Notes under the pieces: generated by a model
Seen by the model: only the letters and a program-made list of their open reading frames with translations
Database searches by the model: none
What the model was told of the DNA's origin: nothing
NCBI GenBank assembly: GCA_965219685.1
Contig: CBDCOH010000002.1
Location: 1,952,001 to 2,016,000, forward strand
Reading direction: 5' to 3'
Source: Candidatus Spongiisociaceae bacterium
GTDB lineage: Bacteria > Actinomycetota > Acidimicrobiia > Spongiisociales > Spongiisociaceae
DNA length: 64,000 nt
Program-made: the position numbers and the translations under genes
In this document: positions 6,031-58,920 of the stretch, in pieces
Numbering within the stretch: position 1 is the first letter of the stretch
Layout of the letters: every line of letters starts with the position of its first letter

Positions 6031-6953
6031 CCGCACCTGCACCCAGCCGTACATCCGACACCGGGGATGCGGGCAACCAGGGAACTCCCGGTATCCGTCA
6101 CGCCCGGATCTGGCATCAACTCCGGGCTGTGGTCCGGCATCCCTCCGGGCGGTTCGGCCTCCTCCTGATCACCCCCGTGTTGCTCCTCGCCGTGTTCGGA
6201 CCGCTGGTGATCGACTGGGATCCCATCCAGATCAATCCTGCCGACTCCCTCCAGGGGCCGTCGGCCCGGCACTGGTTCGGGACCGACCAGCTCGGACGTG
6301 ATCTCGCCGCCCGGGTGGTGAGCGCCATCCCGGTGGTGATCTGGGTACCGCTCGGCGCGGTCCTCCTGGCTGTGACCGCGGGGAGCGCCATCGGCATCCT
6401 GGCCGGATACCGCCGGGGATGGCTGGAGAGGGTCCTGATGGCGGGAACCGACGTGCTATTGGCCATGCCCGGCCTGCTCACCGCCATCCTCATCGTCGGC
6501 GTGTTCGGGGGCGGGTCCCGCAACATGATCCTGGCCATCGGCGTCATCTACCTGCCCCGCTTCACCCGCATCGCCCGCGGTTCGACCCTGGAGGTCCGCG
6601 GCCTCCCCTACGTCGACGCAGCACGACTGTCGGGAACCAAGCCTCTGGCGCTGGTCACGCGTCACATCCTGCCCGGCATCAGCTCGCCCCTGTTCGTGAT
6701 GTGCGTGCTCAGCCTGTCCACCGGGCTGCTGGTCCAGACGGCTCTGAGCTTCCTCGGGTTCGGTTTCGAGCCCCCCACTGCCGACCTCGGGAGGATGCTC
6801 GCCAACTCGGTCGACTTCCTGACCCTCGCACCGTGGATGGCCATCTCCCCCGCCCTGGTGATCACCCTGCTGATCCTCGCCTTCAACAACCTCGGAGACG
6901 CGGTCCGAGACGTGATAGACCCCGAAGTGGCCCGAGCGGCCGGCGCGGTCTGA
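6027..6953 (+). CDS. ABC transporter permease (DppC/OppC-like)
   Basis: HWFGTDQLGRD, YVDAARLSG, LSFLGFG, FNNLGDAVRD; ATGA overlap at 6027-6030. Confidence 0.92.
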   Translation: MTAPAPSRTSDTGDAGNQGTPGIRHARIWHQLRAVVRHPSGRFGLLLITPVLLLAVFGPLVIDWDPIQINPADSLQGPSARHWFGTDQLGRDLAARVVSAIPVVIWVPLGAVLLAVTAGSAIGILAGYRRGWLERVLMAGTDVLLAMPGLLTAILIVGVFGGGSRNMILAIGVIYLPRFTRIARGSTLEVRGLPYVDAARLSGTKPLALVTRHILPGISSPLFVMCVLSLSTGLLVQTALSFLGFGFEPPTADLGRMLANSVDFLTLAPWMAISPALVITLLILAFNNLGDAVRDVIDPEVARAAGAV

Positions 6954-10502: not shown

Positions 10503-10833
10503 GCTGTTCTCCCTCACTTCGCCGGTCTGGTCACGGTGTTGATCTATTGAGAATCTTGGATTCACAAGTTGAGAGTACTTATCACTCCGGGTACGTGCCT
10601 GCCGGAGTGGACACATTTATGTTTGGCTCGTCTCCCCGACCGCGCCGTCATCCAACCCCACAACCCAGAGTCTTGGTTCCGCCTCGCTAGGCACCTGCCT
10701 CAGCTCACCGGGAACCGGTCCTCAACTCCGGGGGCGATTCTCCGCCGGCGTACGGCTTCACGGCGGCAATGAGTCCAGATGCGACCCCTGCGGAAATCAT
10801 CCGATCCAGGACGTGATTAACGATATTTAGGGG

Positions 10834-10862
10834 TTGACATTGTCACAGACCCTTGGTACAAA
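10834..10862 (+). promoter_or_regulatory. Sigma-A-type promoter with embedded PafBC/RecA-NDp-like motif; predicts a leaderless mRNA
   Basis: TTGACA (10834-39), 17 nt, TACAAA (10857-62); TGTCAC-N10-TA geometry; ATG10869 lies 7 nt after the -10. Confidence 0.6.
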
Positions 10863-10868
10863 CAGACC

Positions 10869-12155
10869 ATGGGAAACGAACATCTGTTCGCCACAAAGGA
10901 CGGTCCGGGCACGATGCACACGCCGGATGGACCGGCCGGCGGCGTCGCCGGTTGCGACGCCACCAAACGGATGGCCGCGCTGGTCGACCACCTCGACCGT
11001 TTCGTAGCCGAGGAAGTGTCCCGACACCACCCCGAAGAGGCCCTGGCACTGTTGGGACGGTTTCAGACCCGTCTGTCCTCGCACATGTGCGAACTCGCCC
11101 GCCAGGCAACCACGGCCAATCCGGGCGAGGATACGGCCGGGGTCCTGAAGCGGAAATCGCGGCTCTCGGGACGGGACGCCAAGCGGATGGCCAAGGTAGC
11201 GGACCGGCTCCCGGACCTGCCGAAGGTCGCCGAAGCTCTGGCGGAGGGAGAGATAACAGTCGACCATGCCAAGGCGATGGTCGACGCAGCGGACAAGGTG
11301 GGATCCGATGTGGTCGATTCCGACCCGACGTTGTTGGAGAAAGCCATCCGGTCCGGACCAGACGGTTTCGCTCGCAAGGCCCGGGACTGGTCCAACCAGA
11401 AACTGATCGAAGCCGGGATCGACATCTTGGAGCGCCAGCGCCGGGCCAGAGGAGCGAGGCTGTGGGTGGACCGGAAGAGCGGGATGGGAATGCTGTTCGC
11501 GAAGCTCACCCCAGCCCAGTTCGCCCATCTGCAACAAGCCGCTGACACGCACTACCGGGAGCTGCTGCGCAGGGACGGCACCGACGGCCACGACCCGGAC
11601 GAGGTGCGCACCCCTGCACAGCGGATGGCCGACGTGGTCTTCGAGTTGTTCACCAACCTCGACCCGGACACCGGCGAGATCCTCGACAAAGGAACGGGAC
11701 CGAGGGCGAAGGCTTCCACCCAAGTGATCATCGTCGCCGAACAGGGCGTGGTGGATGGGACCAAACCCCGGGGGCGCTGCGAGATCGTCGGGGTCGGTCC
11801 CGTCCCCCGAGAGATTCTCGGAAACCTGTCACCAGACACGGAACTGGCCGGGATGATCTACGACCGGGCCGGGCGGATCCTCTGGCTCGGACGCCGGCAA
11901 CGCCTCGCCAACGCCGCCCAACGGTTGGCGGTGGCCGTGCGGGACGGGGGTTGCTTCCAGTGCGGAGCCCCGATGCACCGCTGCGAACTCCACCACATCC
12001 GAGAGTGGCACCGCGGCGGAGGACCCACCGACATAGACAACCTGGTGGCCGTCTGCCGTCACCACCACAAGTGGCTTGAGGTCGAGGACCTCGTAGTGCA
12101 GCGTGATCCGGCCGGCCGCTACCAAGCCGTACCTCGCGACGGACCGCCAACCTGA
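10869..12155 (+). CDS. DUF222 (13E12 repeat family) HNH endonuclease
   Basis: ALAEGEITVDHAKA, RTPAQRMAD, GRRQRLANAAQRLAVAVRDGGCFQCGAP..CELHHIREW..GGPTDIDNLVAVCRHHH. Confidence 0.9.
   Translation: MGNEHLFATKDGPGTMHTPDGPAGGVAGCDATKRMAALVDHLDRFVAEEVSRHHPEEALALLGRFQTRLSSHMCELARQATTANPGEDTAGVLKRKSRLSGRDAKRMAKVADRLPDLPKVAEALAEGEITVDHAKAMVDAADKVGSDVVDSDPTLLEKAIRSGPDGFARKARDWSNQKLIEAGIDILERQRRARGARLWVDRKSGMGMLFAKLTPAQFAHLQQAADTHYRELLRRDGTDGHDPDEVRTPAQRMADVVFELFTNLDPDTGEILDKGTGPRAKASTQVIIVAEQGVVDGTKPRGRCEIVGVGPVPREILGNLSPDTELAGMIYDRAGRILWLGRRQRLANAAQRLAVAVRDGGCFQCGAPMHRCELHHIREWHRGGGPTDIDNLVAVCRHHHKWLEVEDLVVQRDPAGRYQAVPRDGPPT
10877..10890. promoter_or_regulatory. LexA SOS box (Gram-positive/actinobacterial type)
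   Basis: CGAAC-ATCT-GTTCG matches CGAAC-N4-GTTCG, just inside the DUF222-HNH start. Confidence 0.7.
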
Positions 12156-15529: not shown

Positions 15530-16771
15530 TCAGTATGTGAATGGCCATCCCTTCCAGTAGTTCCTGATCCGGACCCAGATCCCGTACAGACCCAGCGGCT
15601 CGAGGATCATGAAGAGGATGATCAGCAACCCGAACAGGATCTGATTGAGCTGGAACACCGACAGTCCGGGACCCACCCCGGGAAGCGTGTGCACTATCCC
15701 CGAGTCGTCGGCGGAGACGGCGACCACCACATCGGCGACCGCCGCCAACGCACCCTCTCCGCCAACGATGAGTTGTTTCAACGCGTCGGTGAAGTCCTGG
15801 ACGAGGCGGGGGAGGATGACCACGAAGGCCGAGCCCATCAGGGCCCCCGATACGGTCCCTGCTCCGCCGATGAGGATGATCGCGAGGAACTCCACCGAAA
15901 GGAACAGATCCCAGGTCTCGGGAATCTGGCGACCAACGAACGAGGCGAACAGGGCGCCCGAAACCCCGGCGAACCCCGAGGAGACACCGAATGCCATCAG
16001 TTTATAGCGAAACTCGTTGATTCCCATCACCTCGGCTGCGATGTCCCGGTCGCGGATTGCCTGGAAGGCGCGCCCGGCCCGCGTTCGCTGGAGGTTCTTG
16101 GCAAGCAGGGTCGCGACCACGAGGAACGCCACCATCATGAGATAGACCTTGGCCTCCTCGCTCACGACCAAGCCGAACCAGACGGAGTCGGCCGTGAGGT
16201 CCACCACCGGCTCCTCCTCCTTCCACCATCGCCACTGGAACTCCGGGAAGCTACGTCCCGAGAAGGAACCCCCGGAGATGAAGGTCAGGTTGCGCCAGGC
16301 CCACTCCCCGATGAAGACGAGCGCGAGGGTGGCGAACGCCAGGTACAGGCCCCTCACCCGGACCGCGGCAGGACCCACCAGAAGCCCGATCAGGGCCGGG
16401 ACGACCCCCGCCATGGGCAGCCAGATCCACATCGGGAGACCCAAGCCCCACAGATCACCCGGAGGGGCGCCGAACACCGCGGCGACGTAGGCGCCCACGC
16501 CCATGAAGAAGGCATGGCCGAGCGACACCTGGCCGGCCACACCCGTAAGAAGGTTGATCCCCAGGGCCCCTATCCCGAAGATGGCCACGTGCGACAGGAG
16601 CTTCATCCAGTCGTTGTCCCCCACGAAGTCCGGGTATATCGGGATGTGCGCGGCGAGCGGCGCGAGCGCGGCCAGAGCCAGCAAGACCCCCAGGACGGTC
16701 TTCTTGGTGACGGTCGGCATCAAGGCCTGATCGCGGGCGTAGGAGGTGTGGAGGAGCGGGCGGCCTCTCAT
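15530..16771 (-). CDS. Liv-type ABC permease (LivM-like)
   Basis: GINLLTGVAGQVSLGHAFFMGVGAY, RVRGLYLAFATL, GRAFQAIRDRDIAAEVMGIN. Confidence 0.9.
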   Translation of the reverse strand: MRGRPLLHTSYARDQALMPTVTKKTVLGVLLALAALAPLAAHIPIYPDFVGDNDWMKLLSHVAIFGIGALGINLLTGVAGQVSLGHAFFMGVGAYVAAVFGAPPGDLWGLGLPMWIWLPMAGVVPALIGLLVGPAAVRVRGLYLAFATLALVFIGEWAWRNLTFISGGSFSGRSFPEFQWRWWKEEEPVVDLTADSVWFGLVVSEEAKVYLMMVAFLVVATLLAKNLQRTRAGRAFQAIRDRDIAAEVMGINEFRYKLMAFGVSSGFAGVSGALFASFVGRQIPETWDLFLSVEFLAIILIGGAGTVSGALMGSAFVVILPRLVQDFTDALKQLIVGGEGALAAVADVVVAVSADDSGIVHTLPGVGPGLSVFQLNQILFGLLIILFMILEPLGLYGIWVRIRNYWKGWPFTY

Positions 16772-17739
16772 ACCCGTCTCACCTCCACCGTTCCGAAGAG
16801 CCCGTGAGGACGCACGAACAGCACCAGCATCATCAAGAGGTATGGAACGATCCCGCTGAAGCCGGTGCCGAGGAGTGGATGGTCGAGGTAGCTCCCGGCG
16901 AGGGATTCGGCCACCCCCACGACCAGCCCTCCTATCACCGCTCCCTTGACGGAATCGAGCCCGCCGAGGATGATGGCCGGGAAGGCTCGCATGGCCAGAA
17001 GGGCTGTATCCGGGAAGACCCCCACCCGGCGTGGATACACCGATCCGAACACGCCCCCGACCGTGGCCAGCACAGCCCCGATCGCCCAGGCGATGGCGAA
17101 GATCCTGCCCACGTTGATGCCCTGGGCGCGGGCCGCCTCCTGATCGAAGGCCGTGGCGCGCATGGCTATGCCCGTACGGCTACGGAAGAAGAGGCCCACC
17201 AGTACCATCAACGCTATAGCCACCACGAACTGGGCGATCTCGGTCTCGGGGATGATCACGAACCCGAGGTCCACCCTCGCGTCGCCCCAGGGATCCGCCA
17301 TCGACCGGGGATCCGGTCCGATGAGGTCGGTCACGACCGTCAGCAGGATGATGTGCATACCCAGGGTGACGATGGCCAGCGAGAACAGTTCCTCCCCGAC
17401 CATGGGCCGAACGAAGACCCTCTCGAGGAGCATGCCGACCAGGGCCGACAGCACCAGTGCAACCAGCACGGAGACCGACCATCCCAGCAGCGGCGACCCC
17501 TGCATGTAGCGGCCGGGGAAGTTGAGGTCGACCGCCACCACGGCGGTGAAGAAGGCTCCCAGCGTCGCCATGGCCCCGTGCGCGAAGTTGACGACCTGAG
17601 TCGCTTTGAAGATGATGACGAAGCCCATCGCCAGCAAGGCGTAGATGGCGCCCAGTGAGAGGCCATTGACGATGGCGCCCAGGAGTTGGCTCGGCCCGGA
17701 CTGTGCCAGCAGTGAGAGCGCGAAGAGCGGTTCGTTCAT
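16768..17739 (-). CDS. Liv-type ABC permease (LivH-like)
   Basis: NGLSLGAIYALLAMGFVIIFKATQVVNFAHG, GIAMRATAFDQEAA, ILGGLDS, RPHGLFG; start approximate. Confidence 0.9.
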   Translation of the reverse strand: MNEPLFALSLLAQSGPSQLLGAIVNGLSLGAIYALLAMGFVIIFKATQVVNFAHGAMATLGAFFTAVVAVDLNFPGRYMQGSPLLGWSVSVLVALVLSALVGMLLERVFVRPMVGEELFSLAIVTLGMHIILLTVVTDLIGPDPRSMADPWGDARVDLGFVIIPETEIAQFVVAIALMVLVGLFFRSRTGIAMRATAFDQEAARAQGINVGRIFAIAWAIGAVLATVGGVFGSVYPRRVGVFPDTALLAMRAFPAIILGGLDSVKGAVIGGLVVGVAESLAGSYLDHPLLGTGFSGIVPYLLMMLVLFVRPHGLFGTVEVRRV

Positions 17740-17912
17740 CCGGACCCCATCAGCACGGACCTGCGAGGCTGCGACCTGTCGACTTGTCGACCCTCTGTCC
17801 TGGACGGCGCGGAAACGAACACTGCGGGGTTCCCCGAGAGGCAAACCGGCGGGTCCCACCGCTGGGGACTGGTGAACGGACCCTCTTGCGCGAGCCTCTC
17901 CCGCCCCCTCCT

Positions 17913-18195
17913 AGTGTCCTGCTCCCTGTACTCGTGATAGCTACCGGAACGCACCGACTGCCCCACCGGACATCCCCGGGGCATCGAGAACGCGAAAATC
18001 CGCCCACCGGACCCCTCCGGTGGGCCCACCCCCAACCGCCACCACCGAAGGCTACGAACGCGTCCCGCCGTCCCCCGCAAAGGGTCGGCTTCCGCGGCAT
18101 GATCCCAGCGCCGGTCCGATCGGTACCGTATACGGTCCGGTGGTGCTTGCAGCTACTCATCAGTATGCAACGGGACTGTGACACGGACAACCCCC
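17913..18195 (-). repeat. Dispersed ~282-bp non-coding element, copy 1 (promoter plus putative structured RNA)
   Basis: Colinear similarity to 51402-51683 with shared blocks CGAGAACGCGAAAA, ACCCCTCCGGTGGGCCCACCCCC, CTACGAACGCGTCCCGCC, CCGGTCCGATCGGTACCG, CAGTATGCAACGGGACTGTGACACGG. Confidence 0.85.
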
Positions 18196-18204
18196 ACCGG
18201 CCAC

Positions 18205-20037
18205 CTAGTACATGCCATCGATCAGGTCCTTGAACATCTCCTCCATTACCGCCCTCTTCAGCTTTTGGGTGGCGGTCAACTCACCGTCCTCGTGATCCAA
18301 CTCCTTCGGGATCATCCGGAACCTCCGGATGTTCTCCACCCGGGCGAACTTGGCGTTCGTCCGGTCCACCTCCTCCTGTACCAGCGCTATGACCTCCGGC
18401 TTCTCACCCAGGTCCCGGTACGTCGTGTACGGGATGTTGCGCCGGGTGGCCCAGTCCCCCGCCGCGTCGAACTCGATCCCTATCAGAGCGGTCAGGTAGT
18501 TCCTGCGGTCGCCTATGACCATGGCCTCCTTGACATAGGGCGAAGTCTTGAGGCTGTTCTCGATCTCCGACGGAGAGATGTTCTTGCCCCCGGAAGTGAT
18601 GATTATGTCCTTCATCCGGTCGACGATCCGGATGTGGGTGCCGTCGACCCACTCCCCAACGTCGCCGGTGCGGAGCCAGCCGTCGGCGGTGAAGGCCTCC
18701 TCGGTCTGGGCGGGCCGGTTCCAGTAACCCCTGAAGACAGCCTGATGCCTGGTCTGGATCTCTCCCGTGTCCGGATCGATCCGTAACCCGATGCCCGGAT
18801 ACGGTTCACCCACCGTTCCCAGCTTCATACGTCCGGGGAGGTTGGTGGTCGCCACCGCCGAGTTCTCGGTCATGCCGTAGAGCTCGTACAGGTTGACGCC
18901 CAGCCCGTGGAAGAACTCGATCACCTCGGGAGCGATGGGCGCCGCCCCGGTACCCGCCCAGCGACATCGACGGAGCCCGATCCTCTCCCGCACCGCCCGG
19001 AACACCACCGGATACCCGATCGCGAACAGGAGGGCGCTGAGCATGGTGTGCCGGCCCCCATTGCGAGCCCTCTCCCGTCCGATGGTCATCGCCAATCCGA
19101 GGCCGAAAGAGGTGCAGACGCGCTTGAACCTGGTGGCGTTCCTGCCCCCGATCAGCACCGAGGCGTGGAGTTTCTCCCAGATGCGGGGAACTGCGAAGAA
19201 TAGGGTGGGTTGGACCTCCCGGAGGTTCTCGCCGACCGTGTCGATGGACTCCGCGAAGTTGAGGACGGTACCGATCCCTGCCGACGTCCAGGTCGAGAAT
19301 ATCCGCTCTGCCGCGTGGCACAGGGGAAGGTAGGTGAGTATCTGGTCCGAGGGGCCCGGCGGCACGCCGTCCGGCATTCTTTCCCCGCTCCGGACCAGGA
19401 CCTCGAGGCAGTACGCTACGTTGGCGTTGTCGAGCATCGCCCCCTTCGGAGGACCCGTCGTGCCGGACGTGTAGACGAGCGTCACCACATCGTCGGGGCG
19501 TGCCTGCGCCATCCGGTCCTCGACGGCGGTGGGATTGGACGCCCGGTGCCTGCGTCCGAACTCGAGCAGGTCGTCCCATAAGACGAACCTGGCGTCCTCC
19601 CGGTAGGCACGGAAACCTCTTGGCTCCACGTGGATGATGGTCCGCAGCCCCGGCAAGGCCTCCATCACCTCCAGCACCTTCTCGGCTTGTTCCTGGTCCT
19701 CGGCAAGATGGACGCAGGCTCCGGAATCCTCGAGCACGTACCGGACCTCCGCCGCAGGATTGGTGGGATAGAGTCCGACGGTCGTCCCTCGCAGCGCGAC
19801 CGTGGCCATGTCGAGTATCACCCACTCCGGGCGGTCCTCGGAATGTATCGACACCCGGTCGCCCACGTCGACGCCGAGTGACAACAGCCCGTGGGCGGCC
19901 AGGACGACCTGCTCCCAGTAGGTACCCCAGGTGATCTCCCGCCAAACCCCGTATCTCTTCTCGCGCATGGCAACCGAGTCCGGGCTGGTAACCGCACGCT
20001 CCCTCACGAGTGACGGCAGCGTCTCCAACAAGGACAC
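18205..20037 (-). CDS. Long-chain fatty acid--CoA ligase (FadD-like AMP-binding enzyme)
   Basis: YTSGTTGPPKG, YLPLCH, YGMTE, GWLRTGDVG, IVDRMKDIIITSGGKNISP, ELTATQKLKR. Confidence 0.9.
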   Translation of the reverse strand: MSLLETLPSLVRERAVTSPDSVAMREKRYGVWREITWGTYWEQVVLAAHGLLSLGVDVGDRVSIHSEDRPEWVILDMATVALRGTTVGLYPTNPAAEVRYVLEDSGACVHLAEDQEQAEKVLEVMEALPGLRTIIHVEPRGFRAYREDARFVLWDDLLEFGRRHRASNPTAVEDRMAQARPDDVVTLVYTSGTTGPPKGAMLDNANVAYCLEVLVRSGERMPDGVPPGPSDQILTYLPLCHAAERIFSTWTSAGIGTVLNFAESIDTVGENLREVQPTLFFAVPRIWEKLHASVLIGGRNATRFKRVCTSFGLGLAMTIGRERARNGGRHTMLSALLFAIGYPVVFRAVRERIGLRRCRWAGTGAAPIAPEVIEFFHGLGVNLYELYGMTENSAVATTNLPGRMKLGTVGEPYPGIGLRIDPDTGEIQTRHQAVFRGYWNRPAQTEEAFTADGWLRTGDVGEWVDGTHIRIVDRMKDIIITSGGKNISPSEIENSLKTSPYVKEAMVIGDRRNYLTALIGIEFDAAGDWATRRNIPYTTYRDLGEKPEVIALVQEEVDRTNAKFARVENIRRFRMIPKELDHEDGELTATQKLKRAVMEEMFKDLIDGMY

Positions 20038-24788: not shown

Positions 24789-27700
24789 GTGACCCGGCCA
24801 GACGGCGGCGAGTCCCTCCCGGTGACCGGACGAGGGATGGCCACAGCAGCCCGATCCGAGCAACCCGTCGCGATCGTGGGTATGGCGTGCCGGTTCCCCG
24901 GCGCGGCGAACATCCCTGCCTTCTGGCGCAGGCTGGAGGAAGGCGCGAATTCGGTGGTCGAGGGAGATCCCGGTTCCGGCCGGGGGCGGGTCGGCGACCT
25001 GTTTCCCGATACCTCGGTCCGGAGCGAGGCCTGCCGCTTCGGGGCCTACCTGGACGACCTGACCCGGTTCGACGCCTCCTTCTTTCGCATCTCACCGGTG
25101 GAGGCACAGCTACTCGATCCCCAGCAGCGCCTAATGCTGGAGACGAGCTGGCGGGCCCTCGAGGACGCCGGCATCGACCCGGCCGGGCTCAGGGGGAGCC
25201 GGACCGGGGTTTACGCGGGCATCAGCAACTACGACTACCGGGGTCTGATCCTGGGCGTGGCCGGTGCGGCCGAGCCGGCCCCCAGCCTCTACACCGTCAC
25301 CGGCACCTCCTTCAACACCGCGATCGGCCGGGTCGCCTATGCACTGGGGCTGCAGGGACCGGCCATCGCGATGGACACGGCCTGCTCGTCGTCGCTGGTG
25401 GCGGTCCACCAGGCGGTGACCGCGCTGCAGCGGGACGAGGCGGATCTGGCCCTGGCGGGCGGGGTCCACACAGTCCTGTCCGGACGCCTGCTGGAACTGC
25501 GCGCCAACGCCGGGATGCTGGCGCCCGACGGCCGGTGCAAGACCTTCGACGCGGCCGCCAACGGCTACGTGAGGGGGGAGGGATGCGGGATCCTGATCCT
25601 CAAGCGGCTCGGGGACGCCCAAGCCGACGCCGACCGCATCTGGGCGGTGATCCGGGGGGCGGCGCTGAACCAGGACGGCGCCAGCCAGGGACTGACCGTA
25701 CCGAACGGAACGGCTCAGGAACTCGTCATCGCGGACGCACTGCGCCGGGCGGGGCTCCGCCCGTCCGAGGTCGACTACGTGGAGGCGCACGGAACCGGGA
25801 CATCCGTCGGAGACCCGATCGAGGCGCGGGCCACCGGATCCGCGTACGCGAAGGGGCGGGCCGAGGACCGTCCGTTGCTGATCGGTTCGGTGAAGACGAA
25901 CATCGGGCATCTGGAACCGGCCGCCGGGGTGGCCGGCATTATTAAGACGGTCCTGGCGATGAGCCAGGGCGTGATCCCCAAACACCTGAACTTCCGGACT
26001 CCGAACCCGGAGATCCCCTGGGGGAGGCTCCCGCTCCGGGTTACCTCCGAGGCCACCCCCTGGCCGTACGTTCCTGACCGGCCACCCCTGGCAGGCGTCA
26101 GCGGCTTCGGTTGGTCGGGCACCAACGCCCACGTGCTGCTGGAGGGATACGGGACGGCGGACCGGATGGCGGCCGCGCCTGCGAACGGGCGATGGCCTCG
26201 GGGTTCCGCTCGATCGGTCCATGTCCGCCTCCCCGAAGGGGTCACCGAACGGGCGCCCCAGGACCGACCCACCCGCCGTTCAACCCGCGTACTGCCGCTC
26301 TCGGGACGAACATCGCAGGCTCTGCGGGACCTGGCAGGACGCTACGTGGCATGGCTCGACGATCACCCGGAGGCGCTCGGGTCCGGGAATACGGCCGCGG
26401 ACCGCTTCCTTTCCGACATGACATGGAGCGCAAGCGTGGGACGTAGCCACTTCTCCCGGCGGGCCGGGATCACCTTCGGGGACGCGGCTTCCCTCCGCGA
26501 GAAGCTGGCCGCTCTGGCAGCGACCGCGGGGGAGGTATCACCGCCGACGACTACCAGGGTTGCCTTCGCCTACACGGGCCAGGCCAGCCAGTGGGTGGGA
26601 ATGGGCGAGGCGCTGTACGAGAGCGAGCCGGTGGTCCGCGCCGTCCTCGACCGCTGCGACGACGTGATGCGCGAGCACCGGGACATCTCGCTGCTCGACG
26701 TCATGTTCGGCCGCGCCGGACACGGCGACCTTCTCGACGAGGCAGCCTGGACGCAGCCCGCCATCTACGCGCTGGAATGCGCCCTCACCGCGCTGTGGGC
26801 GAGCGTCGGCATCGAGCCGGAGGTGGTGGTCGGGCACAGCCTGGGGGAGATCGCCGCCGCGCAGGCGGCCGGCGTGTACACGCTCGAGGACGGGCTCCTG
26901 TTCGCCGCGGCACGTGGAGAGTTGATGGGGGCGCTCCCCGGCAGAGGGGCGATGGCGGCCGTCTTCGCCCCGGCGGACCGGGTGAGAGCGGCCGTGGCGC
27001 GGCAGAACGCGGCATCGGGAAGCAACCCGGGCGTGAGCATCGCGGCCGACAACGGCGCCCAGCAGGTGGTGAGCGGCCCGGAGAAGGATGTGGAAGCGAT
27101 AGTCGATCGCTTCGAGTCGGAGGGCGTTTGGGCGAGGAAGCTGAGGAAGAGCCCCGCCTACCACAGCGCACTGGTGGAACCGGCTCTCGATGATCTGGAA
27201 AGGGTCCTGGCATCGGTGGAGACCGCCGCAGCCTCGTGCTCCCTGGTGAGCAGCATGACCGGCCGGGTCATGGAGGCCGACGGGAAGCTCGACGGCGGCT
27301 ACTGGAGGCAGCAGGCCCGGCGACCGGTGGCCTTCCGTGACTGTATAGGGACCCTCGCCGACCTTGAAGTGGACGTGGTGATCGAGATCGGCCCCCGGTC
27401 GGTCCTGGGGCCGATGGTGCTAATGGGATGGCCGGACACGTCGGGCCGGAGCCCCACCGTCCTGTCGAGCCTGAGCGGACCCCCGGATCCGTCCGACCAG
27501 GACGAGGGCACCGGCTTCGAGGAAGCGGTGGCAGGCGCTTACCAGGCCGGCCTCGCCATGACCTTCGAAGGGCTCTACGCGGGAGAGGAACGCCGCCGGG
27601 TGCCGGTCCCCGGCTACCCGTTCCAGCGCGAGCGCTACTGGGTGGAGGGGCGCAGGCGGCGCCGGAGGGATGGCGGGCATCCCCTGCTGGGCGTCCACCA

Positions 27701-30700
27701 CGAGTCACCCCGCGGCGAGGTTCTGTTCGAGACCGAAGTGTCACCCTCCGATCCCGCCTGGTTGGGTGACCACCGGGTGTTCGATCGGGTGGTGGCGCCA
27801 GGCGCCCTCTACGCGGCGATGGCGATAGCGGCCGCGGGGCGGGAGGGCAACGGATCGGCGAGCGTCGAAGACTGCCAGCTGCAGAACGCCCTGGTCCTGC
27901 CGGAGACCGACCCCGAGACGGGCGACGGAGAGGGGAGCCGTCGCGTCCAGCTGGTGATGGAGGGCTCCGATCCGGCGGGCTCGCCCCGCGTCGAGGTGTT
28001 CAGCAAGGCCGAGGACGAGGACGGATGGACGCTCCACATGGAGGCCACGCTGTCCCCCGCTACGCGGCGGACCGCCACCCGGACCGATCTCGCCACCCTC
28101 ACCGCCGGCCTGTCCCCCCAGGACCCGTCGGAGTTCTACCGGGCCAGGTCCGAGACCAGCGTGACCCTGGACCCCCTCTTCCGCACCCTCCGGACGCTCT
28201 GGTCCGGGGATGGCCGGGCGGTGGGGGAGATCGCGCTGCCGGAGATGCTGGACCTCGGCGGCCTCGAGGCGCATCCGGTCCTGCTGGACGGCTGCTTCCA
28301 GGTAGCGGCGGAGGCTCGGGGCGCCGGCCTCTCCACGGAGGGGACCACCTACCTCCCGTTCGGGTGGGATCGCCTGTGGTTGTCGGCGCCGCTCCCCGCC
28401 CGGTTCTTCTGCCATGCGCGCATGAGGGAGGGGACTCTCCCCCGCACGCCCGGCGAGGCTCCGGAGGTGCTGGCAGCCGAGCTGACGATCTACACGCCGG
28501 ACGGCCTCGAGATCGGTGGGGTGAGCGGTTACACCGTGAAGCGGGCCACGCGGGATGCCCTAGTTCCGGCGACCGAGGGCGTGGAGGACCTCCTCTACGA
28601 CGTGGTGTGGCGGGACCGTCCCCTCGCTCCGGCCACGATTCCGGCGGACTTCCTGCCGAGCCCGAGCGCGGTCCGGGCCCGTTCGGGGGACTTCTCCGAA
28701 TATCTGGCCGCCGAAGGCGTCAGCGCCGCGGACAGGACCGCGCTGCTGACCGACCTCGAGCGGCTGTCCTGGTCGTATGCCCTCTCGACCCTGGAGGGCA
28801 TGGGCTGGGAGCGCGAGAAGGGTGCCGTCACGGACCCGGACGCTATGGGCCGCAGTCTCGGAATCCTCGATGAGCACGGACGGCTGTTCCGCCGCCTGTT
28901 CGAGTTGCTCGAGAGGGCCGGCGCGGTGGAGATGGTCGGCACCGGGTTCGTGGCCAAGGTCGGGAAGGACGACCCGCTCCCCGAGCACCTGGCCGGGGAC
29001 CCCGAGGAGTTCGCGGACCGGATGCACGCCATGTATCCCCACGGCACCAACGAGATCGGCCTGTTCCGGCGGAGCGCGGCCGCCCTGGCTGACGTGCTGG
29101 TCGGCCGGGCCGATCCCCTGACGCTGCTGTTCGGCAGCGGCGAGCCCACCGCGGGAGACGTGTACAGGAAGGCGCCCGGGGCCCGGGCCTCCAACAAGAT
29201 GCTGGGAGACGCCATCGCGGCGCTGGTCGAGGACCTGCCGGAGGGCCGCAGGCTGCGGATCCTGGAAGTGGGCGCCGGCACCGGATCGGCCACGGCGTCG
29301 GTACTGCCGGAGTTGCCCGCCGGACGGTTCGATTACGTGTACACCGACATCTCGGCCGGCTTCTTCGCGGAGGCGGAGGGCCGCTTCGCCGAGTACGAGG
29401 AGGCCTTGGAGTACCGGCCGCTGGACATCGAGCTCGACCCCGTGTCCCAGGGCTACGAACCCCATGCCTACGACATCATCATCGCCGCCAACGTCCTGCA
29501 CGCCACCCGGTTCCTGGAGGAGACGCTCGCCAACTGCCGGGAGCTGCTCGCTCCATCGGGCCAGCTGGTGGCGCTCGAGACCCTGGGGGGCCACGGCTGG
29601 CTCGATCTGACCTTCGGACCCCTCGACGGCTGGTGGCGGTTCGCCGACAGCTTCCGGCCGCATCATGCCCTGGTGGGTCCGGCCGTGTGGGAGCGGGCCC
29701 TGGCCAACACGGACTTCGGGGAGATCGAGATCCTGGGGCCGGTCGACAGCAACGACGACCGGGACCGGGGCGTCATCATGGCGAGGGGACCGGTCGAGGT
29801 GGCCGAGCGGCCGGGCGTGTGGGTTGTGGCGGCGGACGGCGCGGGGGCGGCCGAGGCGCTCGCCGGCGAGCTGGCCGCCCGCAACCAGACCGTCTTGATA
29901 GTGGATGGAGAAGCGGCGGACGGTCCGCCGGGCCCGGGCGAGGGGGTCGAACGCGTATCGATCGAGAGGGATCGCCGGGATTCATGGAGGTCGATCTTCG
30001 AAGGACTCCCCTCGGAGCCACCCCTCAACGGGGTCGTCCACCTGGTGGCATCGGACGGTCACGGGCCGGGCGCGACCTCCGGCGAGTTCGCCCGGGACGT
30101 GCGGGACGGCGCCGAGACCGCGCTGGCGCTGGTGCAAGGCATGGCTGACGCCGATGCCGCACCCGCCAAGGGCCTGTGGCTCGTGACCCGGGGCGGGCAG
30201 GTCCTCGAGAAGGAGAGCGAGGGCCAGCTCTCAGGCGCGGTGCTGTGGGGGTTCGGCAAGGTGGTGGCCCGCGAGGCGGCCCACTTCACGCCCCGGATGA
30301 TCGACCTGGACCCGGCGGCGGCCCTTCCGCTCACCGACCTCGTGGAGGAACTGCTGCATCCCGACACCGAGACCCACATCGCCTACCGGCTGGGACTCCG
30401 CCAGGTCGCCCGGCTGGTCAGGGCCGGGGAGGTGACCGAGCGCCTGACCCTGCCCGACGGCAACGGCTGGCGGCTGGAGCCGGACGCGGGCGGCTCGCTC
30501 GACGGTCTGGCGGTCATGCCCTGGCCGGACCAGCCCCTCCAACCGCGGGAAGTTCGCGTGGCGCTGGAGGCGACCGGCCTCAACTTCTGGGATCTCTTCC
30601 GGTCGCTGGGCGTCATCGAGGAGGGCTTGTTGGGGAGGGAGTTCTGCGGCCGGGTCCTCGAAGTCGGATCGGAGGTGTCGACCGTGTCGGCGGGCGACCG

Positions 30701-33700
30701 GGTCGTCGGGCTGGCCTTCGGCACTTTCGGGCCCCGGCCGGTGATGCGGGAAGAGTTGGTGGCGCTCGCACCGGAGGGCATCCCGGCGGCGGACCTCGCC
30801 ACGATGCCGACCGCCTACGTGACGGTGCTGCTGTCGTTCGACCTGGCCCGGCTGGCGGCGGGGGAGCGGGTCCTCATCCATGCCGGCGCCGGAGGGGTGG
30901 GCACCGCCGCGATCCGGATGGCTCACGCGCTGGGGGCGGAGGTGTTCGCCACGGCGAGCACTCCCAAGCACGCCTACGTGCGGTCGCTCGGGGTGAAGCA
31001 CGTGTTCGACAGCCGCCGGACGGGTTTCGGCCGCCAGATCCTCGAGGCGACCGGGGGTCGAGGCGTCGACATGGTCCTGAACAGCCTGACGAGCGAGGGG
31101 TTCATCGACGCCAGCCTCTCCTGCCTGGCACCCGGCGGCCGGTTCGTGGAGCTGGCCGCGGTGGACATCCTGACCGAAGAGGAGATGAAGACCGCCCGCC
31201 CGGACGTGGCCTACTGGATCGTCGACCTGGACTGGCTCAAGGAGCACGACCCGCCGGTGCCGGGCGACGCCCTGAGACGGGTGATGGAACACCTGGCGGC
31301 AGGAGAGGTGGCCCCGCTGGCGAAGACCAGGTGGGCTTTCAACGAGGCGGTCTCGGCGATCAAGTACATGGGGGCCGCCCGCCACAGGGGCAAGATCGTC
31401 CTCGCCCCGTCTCCCATCGAGAGCGGTCGCCTCCGGGACGACCGGACCTACCTGGTCACGGGAGGCCTCGGCGGGATCGGATGCGCCCTGGCCGGCTGGC
31501 TGGCGGACCTGGGCGCCGGCGCCATCGTCCTCAACGGGCGGCGCGACGCGGACCCCGAGGCGGCGGCGTTGATCGAAGAGGTCCGCAGCCGGGGCGCCAC
31601 GGTCCAGGTGGAGCTGGCCGACGTGACGGACGGGCCGGCCGTCGACGCGATGCTCTCCCGCATCGACGCCACGTTGCCGCCGCTGGGGGGCGTCATCCAC
31701 AGCGTGGGGGTGCTGTCGGACGGAGCGCTCACCAACCAGACGTGGGAGAAGTTCGAGGAGGTGCTGTGGCCGAAGGTGCTGGGCGCCTGGCACCTGCACC
31801 GCGCCACCCGGCATCGCGATCTGGATATGTTCATCCTGTTCTCCAGCGTGGCGGGCGTGATGGGCAATCCCGGCCAGGCGAACCACTCGGCGGCCAACGC
31901 CTTCCTGGACCAGCTGGCAGGACACCGCCGAGCGCTCGGGCTGGCCGGACAGTCGATTGCGTGGGGCGCCTGGTCGGGAATCGGAGAAGCCGAGGAGCAC
32001 CGGGAGCGGATCGAGCGGGCGCTGGAGGCGAAGGGAACGGGCTGGATCACCCCCGCGCAGGGACTGGAGGCTCTCGAACGGCTGGTTCGCCAGGACGTGA
32101 CCAGCGAGATGGCGGCGGCGGTGGACTGGGAGGCGATCTCGTCGGGCGACGATCAGCCTCCACCCCTGCTGGAAGACCTTCTGAGCGAGGCGGCTGACGA
32201 CCGGGACCAGGCCGGGGAGACCGTCGAGGACCTCCTCACCCGCCTCCGGGGTGCGGCGGGCGAGGAGCGCGAGGAGATCCTGGCCGAGTTCGTGCAGGGA
32301 GAGCTGCAAGCGGTCATGAGGCTCCCGAACGAGCCACCCAGGACGGTGGACTTCTCGGACCTGGGAATGGACTCCCTGATGGCGGTGGAGCTGCGAAACC
32401 GCCTGAACCGGGCCTTCGCCGGGGAGTACACAGCGCCCAACACCGTGGTCTTCGACTTCCCGAATGCGGTCGACCTCGCCCGGCATCTGGCCTCCGAACT
32501 CGGCGAGCCGGACCCGGTCGTCGCCGCGCCGCCGCCGGTCCTGAGGAGGCCGCCGTCCGAGGATGCGATCGCCGTGGTGGGCATCGGGCTGCGCCTGCCC
32601 GGCGCGGACGATGTCTCCGGGTTCTGGCGCCGGCTCGAGGCCGGTGAGCACGCCGTGACGGACGGACGACAGGATGGCGGCCCCTGGGACGGCGTGGCCG
32701 GGGACCCGGCCGCCGATGATCCGGCCACCCGGCATGGGGCGTTCATCGAGAGGATCGACCGGTTCGACTCACGGTTCTTCCGGATATCCCCCATCGAGGC
32801 TCGCGGCATGGATCCGAAGCAGCGGATGCTGCTCGAGACGGCCTGGCACGCGCTCGAGGATGCCGGGATGGACCCGGACCGGCTGCGAGGCAGCCGCACC
32901 GGCGTGTATATGGGGGTGGGCGGCAGCGAGTACCGGCGCCTCGTCACTGCCAGGGGCATGGACGACAGCTACGCAGGCACGTCCGGAAGCATCGCCGTCG
33001 GGCGCATAGCCTTCGCCCTGGGCCTGGAGGGGCCGGCCGTTCCGGTGGACCTCGCCTGCACGTCATCCCTGGTCGCCGTCCACCAGGCGCTCGCCGGCCT
33101 GCAGCGGGGCGAGGCGGACTTGGCCCTGGCCGGGGGCGTCAACGCAGTCCTCTCCCCCGCCGTCATGCGGTTCCTCGTGGACACCGGACTCATGTCGACC
33201 ACCGGGCAGTGCTGGGCGTTCGATGCCTCCGCCGACGGTTACGTGCGGGGCGAAGGTTGTGTAGTCGTCGTCCTGAAGCGGCTCGCGGACGCGGAAGCGG
33301 ACGGAGACCGCATCTGGGGCGTGATCCGGGGCTCGGCGGTCAACCAGAACGGGGCGGGCCTGGGCCTCACCCTTCCGAACGGGCCTGCCCAGGAACGAGC
33401 CATGGAAGAGGCGCTGTTGCAGTCCGGCATCGAACCGGCCGACGTGGACTACGTGGAGGCGCACGGACCGGGGACGCAGATCGGCGACGCGGTCGAGATC
33501 AACGCCACCGCCAACGTCTACGGCCGGGGCCGGGTGGAGGGCCGCCCGCTGTTGACCGGTTCGGTGAAGACGAACATCGGACACCTGGAAGCCGCCGGAG
33601 GGGTAGCCGGCCTGATCAAGGTTCTGGCCGCCATACAACAGCGGTCGATCCCGAAGCACCTCAACTTCCGCGATCCGAACCCGGATATCGACTGGGAGCG

Positions 33701-34409
33701 CCTGCCGGTACAGGTGACGTCGGAGCCGACAGCCTGGCCGGAAACGGGGAGCCGGCTCCCGCTTGCGGCGGTGAACGCCTTCGGGTTCTCGGGCTCCAAC
33801 GCGCACTTGGTCGTGGAGGGCTACGGAAGCGGCGAAGATGGATCCCCGGAGGTCGGCGGGGCCCGTTGGCCGGTGGGTTCACCCAGGCCGGTGGTCACCT
33901 TGGCCTCCGACGACACTTCGGGCTCACCGTCACCCGAGGACTCGGCAGGACGCAGGACCCGCCTGCTGCCCCTGTCTGGGAAGACGGACCGGGCACTGAG
34001 GGAACTGTCCGCCCGTTATATCGGTTGGCTCGACGAGCACGCGGCTCTGCTCGCCTCACCCGACCGGGAAGATGCGGTGCTCGCGGACATGGCATGGACC
34101 GCTTGGGTCGGCCGAAGCCACATGGCGCACAGGGCGGCTGTGGTATTCGGTGACGCCAAGTCGTTGCGTAGCCGGCTGACCTCTCTTGCCGGCCAAGACG
34201 GGAACGGCCAGGACAGCACACCTGACACGGAGAGTTCCGCCGGTGACCCATCCGAGCCCGACGGCTACCGCCGACTCGTGGAGTCCCTCGCAGCCGACTA
34301 CGAGGCCGGACAGACGGTTCCGTTCGAGAGTCTCTTCACGGGCGAGACCCGCTGCCGTATATCCCTGCCCATCTATCCCTTCCAACGCCGGAGCCACTGG
34401 TTCGAATGA
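24789..34409 (+). CDS. supA: Type I highly reducing PKS, KS-AT-DH-cMT-ER-KR-ACP-KS-(AT remnant); SupA-type
   Basis: KS1 DTACSSS/HGTGT/NIGH; AT GHSLG and SPAYHS; DH HRVFDRVVAP and LLDGCFQ; cMT LEVGAGTGS; ER LIHAGAGGVG; KR TGGLGGIG; ACP LGMDSL; KS2 DLACTSS/HGPGT; no TE; start may be ATG24837. Confidence 0.9.
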   Translation: MTRPDGGESLPVTGRGMATAARSEQPVAIVGMACRFPGAANIPAFWRRLEEGANSVVEGDPGSGRGRVGDLFPDTSVRSEACRFGAYLDDLTRFDASFFRISPVEAQLLDPQQRLMLETSWRALEDAGIDPAGLRGSRTGVYAGISNYDYRGLILGVAGAAEPAPSLYTVTGTSFNTAIGRVAYALGLQGPAIAMDTACSSSLVAVHQAVTALQRDEADLALAGGVHTVLSGRLLELRANAGMLAPDGRCKTFDAAANGYVRGEGCGILILKRLGDAQADADRIWAVIRGAALNQDGASQGLTVPNGTAQELVIADALRRAGLRPSEVDYVEAHGTGTSVGDPIEARATGSAYAKGRAEDRPLLIGSVKTNIGHLEPAAGVAGIIKTVLAMSQGVIPKHLNFRTPNPEIPWGRLPLRVTSEATPWPYVPDRPPLAGVSGFGWSGTNAHVLLEGYGTADRMAAAPANGRWPRGSARSVHVRLPEGVTERAPQDRPTRRSTRVLPLSGRTSQALRDLAGRYVAWLDDHPEALGSGNTAADRFLSDMTWSASVGRSHFSRRAGITFGDAASLREKLAALAATAGEVSPPTTTRVAFAYTGQASQWVGMGEALYESEPVVRAVLDRCDDVMREHRDISLLDVMFGRAGHGDLLDEAAWTQPAIYALECALTALWASVGIEPEVVVGHSLGEIAAAQAAGVYTLEDGLLFAAARGELMGALPGRGAMAAVFAPADRVRAAVARQNAASGSNPGVSIAADNGAQQVVSGPEKDVEAIVDRFESEGVWARKLRKSPAYHSALVEPALDDLERVLASVETAAASCSLVSSMTGRVMEADGKLDGGYWRQQARRPVAFRDCIGTLADLEVDVVIEIGPRSVLGPMVLMGWPDTSGRSPTVLSSLSGPPDPSDQDEGTGFEEAVAGAYQAGLAMTFEGLYAGEERRRVPVPGYPFQRERYWVEGRRRRRRDGGHPLLGVHHESPRGEVLFETEVSPSDPAWLGDHRVFDRVVAPGALYAAMAIAAAGREGNGSASVEDCQLQNALVLPETDPETGDGEGSRRVQLVMEGSDPAGSPRVEVFSKAEDEDGWTLHMEATLSPATRRTATRTDLATLTAGLSPQDPSEFYRARSETSVTLDPLFRTLRTLWSGDGRAVGEIALPEMLDLGGLEAHPVLLDGCFQVAAEARGAGLSTEGTTYLPFGWDRLWLSAPLPARFFCHARMREGTLPRTPGEAPEVLAAELTIYTPDGLEIGGVSGYTVKRATRDALVPATEGVEDLLYDVVWRDRPLAPATIPADFLPSPSAVRARSGDFSEYLAAEGVSAADRTALLTDLERLSWSYALSTLEGMGWEREKGAVTDPDAMGRSLGILDEHGRLFRRLFELLERAGAVEMVGTGFVAKVGKDDPLPEHLAGDPEEFADRMHAMYPHGTNEIGLFRRSAAALADVLVGRADPLTLLFGSGEPTAGDVYRKAPGARASNKMLGDAIAALVEDLPEGRRLRILEVGAGTGSATASVLPELPAGRFDYVYTDISAGFFAEAEGRFAEYEEALEYRPLDIELDPVSQGYEPHAYDIIIAANVLHATRFLEETLANCRELLAPSGQLVALETLGGHGWLDLTFGPLDGWWRFADSFRPHHALVGPAVWERALANTDFGEIEILGPVDSNDDRDRGVIMARGPVEVAERPGVWVVAADGAGAAEALAGELAARNQTVLIVDGEAADGPPGPGEGVERVSIERDRRDSWRSIFEGLPSEPPLNGVVHLVASDGHGPGATSGEFARDVRDGAETALALVQGMADADAAPAKGLWLVTRGGQVLEKESEGQLSGAVLWGFGKVVAREAAHFTPRMIDLDPAAALPLTDLVEELLHPDTETHIAYRLGLRQVARLVRAGEVTERLTLPDGNGWRLEPDAGGSLDGLAVMPWPDQPLQPREVRVALEATGLNFWDLFRSLGVIEEGLLGREFCGRVLEVGSEVSTVSAGDRVVGLAFGTFGPRPVMREELVALAPEGIPAADLATMPTAYVTVLLSFDLARLAAGERVLIHAGAGGVGTAAIRMAHALGAEVFATASTPKHAYVRSLGVKHVFDSRRTGFGRQILEATGGRGVDMVLNSLTSEGFIDASLSCLAPGGRFVELAAVDILTEEEMKTARPDVAYWIVDLDWLKEHDPPVPGDALRRVMEHLAAGEVAPLAKTRWAFNEAVSAIKYMGAARHRGKIVLAPSPIESGRLRDDRTYLVTGGLGGIGCALAGWLADLGAGAIVLNGRRDADPEAAALIEEVRSRGATVQVELADVTDGPAVDAMLSRIDATLPPLGGVIHSVGVLSDGALTNQTWEKFEEVLWPKVLGAWHLHRATRHRDLDMFILFSSVAGVMGNPGQANHSAANAFLDQLAGHRRALGLAGQSIAWGAWSGIGEAEEHRERIERALEAKGTGWITPAQGLEALERLVRQDVTSEMAAAVDWEAISSGDDQPPPLLEDLLSEAADDRDQAGETVEDLLTRLRGAAGEEREEILAEFVQGELQAVMRLPNEPPRTVDFSDLGMDSLMAVELRNRLNRAFAGEYTAPNTVVFDFPNAVDLARHLASELGEPDPVVAAPPPVLRRPPSEDAIAVVGIGLRLPGADDVSGFWRRLEAGEHAVTDGRQDGGPWDGVAGDPAADDPATRHGAFIERIDRFDSRFFRISPIEARGMDPKQRMLLETAWHALEDAGMDPDRLRGSRTGVYMGVGGSEYRRLVTARGMDDSYAGTSGSIAVGRIAFALGLEGPAVPVDLACTSSLVAVHQALAGLQRGEADLALAGGVNAVLSPAVMRFLVDTGLMSTTGQCWAFDASADGYVRGEGCVVVVLKRLADAEADGDRIWGVIRGSAVNQNGAGLGLTLPNGPAQERAMEEALLQSGIEPADVDYVEAHGPGTQIGDAVEINATANVYGRGRVEGRPLLTGSVKTNIGHLEAAGGVAGLIKVLAAIQQRSIPKHLNFRDPNPDIDWERLPVQVTSEPTAWPETGSRLPLAAVNAFGFSGSNAHLVVEGYGSGEDGSPEVGGARWPVGSPRPVVTLASDDTSGSPSPEDSAGRRTRLLPLSGKTDRALRELSARYIGWLDEHAALLASPDREDAVLADMAWTAWVGRSHMAHRAAVVFGDAKSLRSRLTSLAGQDGNGQDSTPDTESSAGDPSEPDGYRRLVESLAADYEAGQTVPFESLFTGETRCRISLPIYPFQRRSHWFE

Positions 34410-48750: not shown

Positions 48751-48899
48751 CAGCCCTCCGAGGTCGTTACGTTTTCGAACATCTCCGGTCGACCGAGCAT
48801 GAACGACCATCTGGTCTATATCCTCCAATGCTGTATTGTGTTATCGAATGATGATGAATCTTGAGGATCCCAAGGGGATTCCAGGCGGTCAGGAACAAG

Positions 48900-49268: not shown

Positions 49269-49278
49269 GGAGACCGCT

Positions 49279-49645: not shown

Positions 49646-49655
49646 GGAGACTGCC

Positions 49656-50024: not shown

Positions 50025-50034
50025 GGAGACCGCC

Positions 50035-50110
50035 GTGGAGACGCTGACATACCAGGACGCGGACCGGCAACTACCGGCCCCGAGCTTCGTAGAGCTATCC
50101 CCGGCGACTC
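50035..50110 (+). pseudogene. PaREP1-family copy 4, 5' fragment
   Basis: METLTYQDADRQLPAPSFVELS, then similarity is lost. Confidence 0.65.
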
Positions 50111-51401: not shown

Positions 51402-51683
51402 AGTGTCCGATTCCTGGGTTCGTGATGGAAATCCAGAACGTACGTGCCACGCGGCCAGGCAGGCCCCGGAAGCCGAGAACGCGAAAACCTCCCCGACCGT
51501 ACCCCTCCGGTGGGCCCACCCCCTACCGCCACCTCCAAAGCCTACGAACGCGTCCCGCCATCCCCACAGCAGGTCGGCTCCTACAACATGATCCCCGCCC
51601 CGGTCCGATCGGTACCGCAACGGACCGTTGGTGTTTACGGCTACTTGCCAGTATGCAACGGGACTGTGACACGGGCAACCCCC
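51402..51683 (-). repeat. Dispersed ~282-bp non-coding element, copy 2
   Basis: Colinear with 17913-18195; same minus-strand promoter TTGCCC-17nt-CATACT containing TGTCAC. Confidence 0.85.
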
Positions 51684-51844
51684 TCGTAACGAACTTGTAG
51701 CGAGAACGCTCGGTCCCCAACCCCGCTTCTCTGGCACAGGTGCCTTGTCCCGTTCCGAGTGGCGGAGCATCTCGACTGCCTCTCCGTCAGAGCATCATCC
51801 CGGCAGTCACCGCACGGCGATCAAGCGGCGGACGTCTCCGGCCG

Positions 51845-58839: not shown

Positions 58840-58920
58840 GGGACCGGAGGATAGCGGTGAGTGGTGAGGCGACTGGCAACTGGCTACCAGACCTACTCAC
58901 TGCTACCCTGTAATACTCCT

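Follow-up and report, generated by a model that had tools for sequence, protein, structure and literature searches.

Bacterial MITEs are generally taken for passive repeats, with any folding of their RNA due to the inverted ends, and several of them (Correia, RUP and ERIC) are derived from IS630. Dispersed repeats can also give rise to RNA, as in the case of the REP-derived naRNA4 of E. coli, for which a role in nucleoid condensation has been proposed. Guide RNAs of the omega-RNA type, for their part, are linked to a nuclease gene and take their guide from the flank. In a review (PMC3184786), the Correia element, RUP, ERIC and Nezha are described as having the terminal repeats of an intact insertion sequence, a short target duplication, no transposase and a length of at most about 400 bp; they can carry promoters. 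Long stem-loops are also described, and the Correia promoters transcribe flanking DNA. IS630 elements duplicate TA in a CTAG context, and their transposase alone suffices in vitro (PMC2170065, in excerpt).

The unit described here occurs twice in a 64-kb stretch of DNA (the window) from a Candidatus Spongiisociaceae bacterium. With these MITEs it has in common the terminal repeats, the short target duplication, the lack of a transposase, the size and the capacity to carry a promoter, and with IS630 and ISY100 it shares the ends, the TA duplication and the CTAG context (PMC2170065, in excerpt). Unlike these MITEs, it is conserved in its interior and not at its ends, and its promoter points inward, at a covarying multi-stem RNA. 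Unlike IS630, it has no transposase inside it, whereas the one intact IS630 in the loci examined lacks the RNA core. The unit resembles naRNA4 in that RNA would arise from dispersed repeats with a proposed role in trans, and differs from it in sequence, in having its own promoter and in its IS630 ends. As regards the omega-RNA type, a single DUF222-HNH gene of three lies beside a core, and a variable arm of 20–100 nt separates the core from the terminal repeat. Bacterial Y RNAs (YrlA) have a similar size and, like this RNA, are closed by a long stem that is bulged near the 5′ end; however, the Y-RNA motif GNCGAAN0-1G near the 5′ end is found in 0/70 cores, the T-loop pattern of a tRNA-like domain in 1/70 (the one gene called by ARAGORN in 17 sources, a tRNA-Lys, lies away from the cores), and the copies are dispersed, with no neighbor recurring among 657 called ORFs, whereas YrlA lies within 4 kb of a Ro60 gene. 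We put the probability at roughly 60% that the unit is an IS630-derived non-autonomous MITE, about 330–390 bp when whole, whose interior is a structured small RNA gene, apparently new, with its own inward promoter, and that it is tied to IS630 and not to the HNH genes.

Copy 1 (17912..18195, minus strand) consists of promoter, RNA core, right arm and an IS630-type right terminal repeat, and is without left arm and left repeat. The promoter (18162..18195) contains a GGGGTTG −35-like box (18188-18194) and a TGTCAC PafBC-type −26 element (18178-18183), followed after 10 nt by the −10 box CATACT (18162-18167). The predicted structured RNA core of about 170 nt (17986..18155) scores 148 bits against a model built with copy 1 included; its 5′ end would lie at about 18155, by analogy with the leaderless HNH gene, whose ATG stands 6 nt past its −10 box. 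Within the core, the 5′ strand of stem P1 (18142..18153) carries a conserved 3-nt AAR bulge and its 3′ strand is GGTGGCGGT (18035..18043). The P2 hairpin (18111..18140; z < −1 in 44/49 cores) displays the self-complementary loop hexamer GGTACC (18122..18127), a predicted kissing-loop dimer site. A conserved GGGATCA motif (18100..18106), unpaired in the model, is a candidate protein or tertiary contact, and the conserved 3′ motif TTTTCGCGTTCTC (17986..17998) could pair with an internal GGRACGCG, a pairing without covariation support. The right arm (17912..17985) ends in CAGGACAC-TA(G), that is, in the IS630 right terminal repeat (14/16 matches) plus the TA/CTAG target. The 3′ boundary that the earlier note had placed at 17913 corresponds to the TA at the tip of this repeat, which it had not recognised as such. 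On the other side, copy 1 begins 10 bp past the stop of a fadD-like (AMP-binding) gene, as had been reported. The left arm was probably deleted, since the right repeat ends at 17912 and the CTAG at the fadD-like stop codon (18205..18208), a possible left target site, lies 10 bp from the promoter. The flanking genes, the fadD-like gene and a branched-chain amino acid permease gene, are both on the strand of copy 1.

Copy 2 (51403..51683, minus strand) lies between a MacB/FtsX permease gene and an opposed Band-7 gene. It comprises a promoter (51650-51683), a core (51475-51643) with the same GGTACC loop (51611-51616), and a decayed right repeat, GGACAC (51403-51408), with 10/16 matches to the IS630 end. 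A remnant of a subfamily left arm (GGACCGAGC) precedes it at 51684..51716, where no left repeat was found. The existence of two copies of a dispersed non-coding element at these sites is borne out by BLASTN of 17800-18300 against the window, which matches 51683-51474 at 84.4% identity over 212 nt (E 2e-60), the next-best match in the window having an E of 0.026. Beyond the 212 nt the likeness is weaker but reaches GGACAC at the 3′ end.

The window contains several other features of interest. An IS5-family transposase gene (DUF4096 and DDE_Tnp_1; 55865-56789) sits at a CTAG in a 99-bp repeat region and splits an efflux adaptor-like gene. Three tandem alpha/beta-hydrolase-like genes (58000-61237) are separated by 7-bp tandem repeats, with spacer arrays of ACTATTC and AGTGGTG/ACTGGTG at about 58907-59067, 59905-60030 and 60065-60113. 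PaREP1-family genes form three to four tandem repeats of about 378 bp (48861-50129; two were scanned, both PF05942), and three solute-binding-type lipoproteins (947-2947, 37838-39796 and 42701-44503) have long Ala/Glu-rich linkers of 21-bp repeats. A polyketide synthase of 3206 aa (24789-34409) has the domain architecture KS-AT-DH-MT-ER-KR-ACP-KS and resembles the sup-type PKS of sponge symbionts.

The wider family was found by a single GTDB scan with a pattern that fits both window copies and the HNH promoter, which gave 53 rows in 52 loci. The overlapping loci L024, L044 and L041 were left out of the counts, and two loci without a core, from a gammaproteobacterium and a Bacteroidales, were treated as chance matches. 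The remaining loci come from 13 genomes, 11 of them titled Acidimicrobiia, Ca. Spongiisocius or Ca. Spongiisociaceae and two titled "bacterium"; the scan is tied to the promoter, and the range is established within this Ca. Spongiisociaceae/Acidimicrobiia clade. There are 49 distinct promoter matches in the clade, of which 47 lead into the core of about 170 nt (two of these reach only its 5′ part), one leads into a DUF222-HNH ORF and one is cut by a contig end. The proposal of a mobile promoter-plus-structured-RNA unit is supported, and the unit is multi-copy. A profile search recovered a further 21 copies without the scan pattern in 746 kb of flanks, or one per 36 kb, which would correspond to roughly 100 or more copies per genome, provided that clustering does not inflate the rate, and agrees with the two copies in the 64-kb window. 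The core alignment holds 49 of 51 extracted cores, two longer ones being omitted, and these 49 full-length cores have a mean pairwise identity of 70%.

The earlier note knew no named family for the element, and our searches point the same way. Rfam 15 gave no match in the window (best E for copy 1, 8.1), and a search of eight family loci gave three matches with E no higher than 1, all of them outside the cores. Plasmid and phage collections yielded best E values of 0.9 and 0.3, respectively, with no more than 14% of the query covered. The family is not described in the titles and abstract openings returned by a literature search, nor in the main text of a 2026 preprint on prokaryotic non-coding clusters (10.64898/2026.10.21.760802), whose supplements may hold it. 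A divergent subfamily with a longer core, CCGATCGG-type loops and TA-type −10 boxes, in some cases with tandem CCTCAGGTTC repeats downstream, was also seen (L003:6601-6826; L005 at about 17300; L007:646-895 and 6590-6831; L017:3514; L019:4097-4328; L045:14239-14464).

The mycobacterial PafBC (RecA-NDp) promoters have the consensus tGTCgg-N10-tA-N3-T, in which GTC is almost invariant, and have no −35 box (PMC8635444, in excerpt); in M. tuberculosis, TGTCAC-N10-TA-N3-T is among the listed variants (PMC8151990, in excerpt). The element promoter fits this DNA-damage motif as TGTCAC-N10-YA-N3-T, with the same GTC, 10-nt spacer and A-N3-T. It departs from the definition, which is mycobacterial while the host belongs to the Acidimicrobiia, in that the −10 box begins with C in place of T in 60/73 rows and in that most copies have a −35-like TTGnCn/TTGAAn 17 nt ahead of the −10 box, a feature partly forced by the scan pattern. 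The copies found by profile outside that pattern, in which the −10 box was unconstrained, are informative in this respect: all 21 keep TGTCAY-N10-YA-N3-T, and with it the GTC triplet, the 10-nt spacer and A-N3-T, while 14 of the 21 have lost GGGTTG and the −35-like box. Since YA-N3-T is held 10 nt past TGTCAY in every one of them, the −26 and −10 elements appear to be what is kept. One further copy, L003_6826, has CGTCAC and was excluded by the anchor, and it too retains GTC and TA-N3-T. A PafC gene (HTH_PafC and WYL) is present in locus L011 of Ca. S. variivorans. No recA or uvr gene on which the promoter could be calibrated was found in the loci by short motifs.

A TGTCAC-type motif also lies upstream of rmuC, a type I-G cas7 (cas7g), a PLD-type nuclease gene, clpC and a 77-aa winged-helix-like ORF; a loose pattern gave 34 intergenic matches in all, these included, and many are probably due to chance. 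The cas7 gene (TIGR02570, 65 bits; L015:11665-12950) stands behind TGTCAC-N10-CATACT and may belong to a damage-induced CRISPR-Cas system. A family of ORFs of 77–84 aa occurs in core-rich loci, each with its own TGTCAC-N10-TA-N3-T promoter (L004:9604-9837; L038:6639-6872; L046:5168-5422 and 16580-16813). The one of four members scanned has no Pfam match, and the Atlas look-alikes are DsrD-like winged-helix proteins. In L004, a core is continued after its 5′ 70 nt by the promoter and ORF of a member of this family.

The core itself is non-coding. Relative to copy 1, 285 of 295 indels in 48 relatives are not multiples of three, in line with the earlier argument that the copies have no ORF in common. 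Protein searches were made with the two longest overlapping ORFs, one sense and one antisense. The sense ORF gave 27 matches, namely 17 short read-throughs of other copies in shifting frames (no Pfam match in the eight scanned) and 10 long repeat proteins at 26–36% identity (the three scanned contain SBBP, Ig-like and other repeats). The antisense ORF has no longer relatives among 3337 candidates, which is weak evidence in itself. A decayed protein-coding gene, which had been named as a possible undoing of the RNA reading, is not indicated by these read-throughs and chance repeat matches.

In the model, P1 joins the 5′ end, with its AAR bulge, to position ~125, P2 forms a hairpin of 9 bp and P3 a weaker one. 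Across the 49-core alignment, 86% of cells pair. Both-side changes total 103, four loop pairs included, against 43 in shuffles; none of 500 shuffles was as high, and slid controls gave 9–39. G-U outnumbers A-C in model pairs by 88 to 21, which fits an RNA on the promoter-sense strand. Covarying stems, which the earlier note had proposed to look for, are therefore present: P2 pairs 30-55 and 31-54 show seven changes on the 5′ side and three to five on the 3′ side of the tree, P1 shows mostly one compensatory event (pair 12-141, one step per column), and P3 is paired in 67.6% of cells. If one counts only how many pairs have changes on both sides, the result is not significant (48/500 shuffles), and single-sequence folding energy was no better than shuffles in 8/8 cases (z −0.64 to +0.63). 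An internal-to-3′ helix, although 94% paired, was rejected since 264/500 shuffles paired as well. The stem GCCCACCGGA-GGGG-TCCGGTGGGC, put forward earlier as a feature of the element, is a 3′ hairpin of copy 1 (z −5.5) and not of the family (mean z −0.5; 3/49 below −2), and CGGTACCG, assigned earlier to the stems, is instead the loop palindrome. A conserved terminator was not found in the family. Complementarity to IS630 or HNH mRNA does not exceed that of shuffles, and an antisense role was set aside.

The P2 loop stays self-complementary while its sequence varies among GACGTC, GGTACC and GGCGCC, with CCGATCGG or GTCGAC in divergent copies. The two top covarying column pairs of the whole alignment are both in this loop. 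Columns 44/46, the top pair, hold two adjacent bases, which are CG in 31 of the 49 cores and TA in the other 18; columns 43/47 hold AT in 28, GC in 20 and GT in one, and columns 42/48 are G-C in 49/49. With the loop left out of the tree building, column 44 changes four times, and column 46 changes with it each time and at no other point. The aligned loop site is a perfect palindrome in 47/49 cores, the others being a G-U variant and a 1-nt insertion, and a perfect 6-mer palindrome occurs in 48/49 loops, compared with 9.1 after shuffling (maximum 21). Adjacent bases are unable to pair within one strand, and pairing of two RNAs is the simplest reading; the loop thus probably mediates kissing-loop dimerisation. 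A DNA-binding protein that accepts five different palindromes is unlikely, and the GGCGUC loop variant pairs only through G-U. The same coupled substitutions, preserving a 6-nt loop palindrome, backed dimerisation in umbravirus ATS hairpins and are seen in the HIV-1 DIS (PMC10484742, in excerpt); those RNAs are viral genomes, whereas this one is chromosomal and bacterial, and no homology is implied.

The ends of the unit connect it to IS630. TAGTGTCCYG marks the left boundary of many copies and its reverse complement the right boundary, and the same ends delimit an intact 1174-bp IS630 (L025:10732-11905), the only one seen in the loci, whose ORF is a transposase (NF033545, 265.9 bits, cutoff 100). 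Right arms match up to 32 nt of the 3′ end of this element. Scored against its ends alone at ≥12/16, IS630 ends occur in 16/69 left flanks and 19/58 right flanks, compared with 0/69 and 0/58 in the wrong orientation and 17/1572 in other intergenic windows. Both ends reach the threshold in only 6/57 copies. In the window, the best left repeat of copy 1 has 9/16 matches and copy 2 has 8 (left) and 10 (right) of 16; neither has both repeats, and the two are best regarded as decayed members. The motif C-TA-G stands at both ends of L008 and L025b. A filled site (L040) can be compared with an empty one (L022) at C-TA/TG-G, the empty site reading CTGG; the insert in L040 is composite, including a second MITE about 105 bp long. 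The pair L014_4500 and L036 was rejected as an empty site, being a deletion that left the right arm in place. The IS5-family transposase of the window (55905-56789) was likewise rejected as the source of the ends, as its left end, CTAG-GGCGTGTTCAC, is different. The earlier note had counted a match to a known IS end against its reading, and such a match was found in part, at the outer ends of the unit. The second MITE (TAGGAGGGTG...CACCCTCCTA; L001:12829-12934; L004:12858-12962; L025:10629-10733) shares CTAG sites with IS630 ends, and some cores use its end instead; its transposase was not found in the loci.

Our favored model runs as follows. An IS630 transposase made elsewhere would cut the unit at its inverted repeats and paste it at TA in CTAG, the ends decaying later, as in the window copies; the terminal repeats and the filled/empty pair bear on this step, and catalysis in trans would follow the practice of the IS630 family. 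After DNA damage, PafBC would activate the promoter in many copies at once, as the motif and the presence of a PafC gene in the clade suggest. The RNA of about 170 nt would then close by P1 and present the P2 hairpin, the stems that covary, and two such RNAs could pair loop to loop through a palindrome of 6–8 nt, to which the coupled loop changes point. The dimer would most likely act as a trans-acting protein-binding scaffold by way of the AAR bulge and GGGAUCA, which would keep end-less copies under selection; this last step we hold tentatively, at somewhat below even odds. In six of seven orthologous filled sites the RNA is more identical than the four-fold sites of the flanking gene (for example, 0.97 versus 0.83; the exception is 0.88 versus 0.91), a result that gene conversion could mimic; in one comparison the flanking gene encodes a surface protein and may be fast-evolving, and on the tree two of the pairs are not sisters.

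It is conceivable, although we consider it unlikely, that the RNA serves the element, recruiting, pairing or restraining IS630 transpososomes on damage, for example in synapsis through the kissing loop, in which case selection would favor its spread and not the host. Such a role would suit an RNA tied to IS630 ends and driven by a damage-type promoter, and copies do cluster with other MITE ends at CTAG, with near-identical flanks at many contig ends of one MAG suggesting a recent burst. Yet the intact IS630 has neither the core nor complementarity to it beyond shuffles, an IS630-family transposase needs no partner in vitro (PMC2170065, in excerpt), and copies without recognisable ends still hold the promoter and the loop.

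One observation is left unexplained by the IS630 model. The 3′ motif TTTTCGCGTTCTC is repeated in eight copies and precedes the promoter at two independent sites (one common to four genomes, the other in L012), a repetition that cut-and-paste does not produce. The promoter and core could therefore be a mobile unit of their own that integrates or recombines at TTTTCGCGTTCTC and was captured later by IS630 ends, a history also suggested by the variable arm lengths (−65 to −120 and +204 to +290) and by the other ends on some copies. We regard this as quite improbable: the 657 called ORFs, with clusters read by eye and annotated in part, include no recombinase or reverse transcriptase that recurs next to copies, an RNA intermediate would lose the upstream promoter, and the upstream motif is absent from most copies.

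The earlier note had suggested DUF222-HNH proteins as possible partners that bind the RNA or mobilise it. The HNH gene of the window (10869..12155, plus strand) is leaderless and lies outside the element, with which it has only the promoter in common (10830..10862, plus strand; TTGACA, TGTCAC-N10-TACAAA). The proposed position-for-position alignment of the two promoters holds, and so does the idea of a damage-type promoter common to both, with the PafBC-type motif in each; the ATG was said to coincide with the start of the GTAGC tract and is in fact close, aligning with its TAG, one base off. All three DUF222-HNH genes in 810 kb have this promoter type, two of them including GGGGTTG, a match beyond the PafBC motif, and co-regulation of element and gene on this pattern is plausible. 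In L029 a core is found on the same strand as an HNH gene, 200 bp ahead of it, and a trans-acting RNA needs no linkage. That gene has its own TGTCAC promoter, however, and with ~70 cores over roughly 600 intergenic gaps one adjacency in three would be unremarkable. Only 1/49 promoter matches leads into an HNH gene, the core shows no likeness to the three HNH loci above shuffles on either strand, no HNH gene lies within IS630 ends in the loci seen, and a locus-specific guide segment was not seen. For these reasons mobilisation by, or regular co-occurrence with, DUF222-HNH genes was not borne out, and a partnership or guide role is very doubtful. A decayed HNH fragment was also rejected as the origin of the core, there being no DNA likeness above shuffles and tblastn of 120 HNH homologues giving noise and one promoter read-through. 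The structural model of the HNH protein (mean pLDDT 65.8) gave only weak ParB/Noc HTH rows and nothing in the PDB at E ≤0.001, and is uninformative.

That the unit is a portable promoter or 5′ leader placing neighbors, here the liv genes, under damage control can hardly be maintained, for although copy 1 faces livH without a detected terminator and MITE promoters drive neighbors in Neisseria (PMC3184786, in excerpt), the orientation to the next downstream gene is random in the family (28 same strand, 35 opposite, by our own ORF calling), which leaves the liv-driving role unsupported, the neighbors are unrelated (no recurring gene among 657 called ORFs, clusters being read by eye and annotated in part), and a conserved frame was not found after the SD-like GGAGG.

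The IS630-derived MITE with a small RNA gene inside it could have a wider significance. A more far-reaching idea, which we offer as speculation with the odds well against it, is that it represents a new class of damage-induced, self-dimerising bacterial RNAs. Some hundred copies would be scattered over each genome, and loop-to-loop pairing of their nascent transcripts during the damage response would hold distant chromosomal sites together or provide a scaffold for a nuclease or transposase complex (IS630 or DUF222-HNH). On this view, the repeat family would owe its amplification in bacterial genomes to its RNA product. What is seen in the family is that the ends are lost but the inward promoter and the multi-stem RNA are retained, and that the loop remains self-complementary through at least five different sequences. 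If confirmed, the unit would add a new RNA family to the PafBC regulon, beyond the mycobacteria in which PafBC has been studied, and would be a natural bacterial example of a kissing-loop dimer RNA that owes its spread to a transposon.
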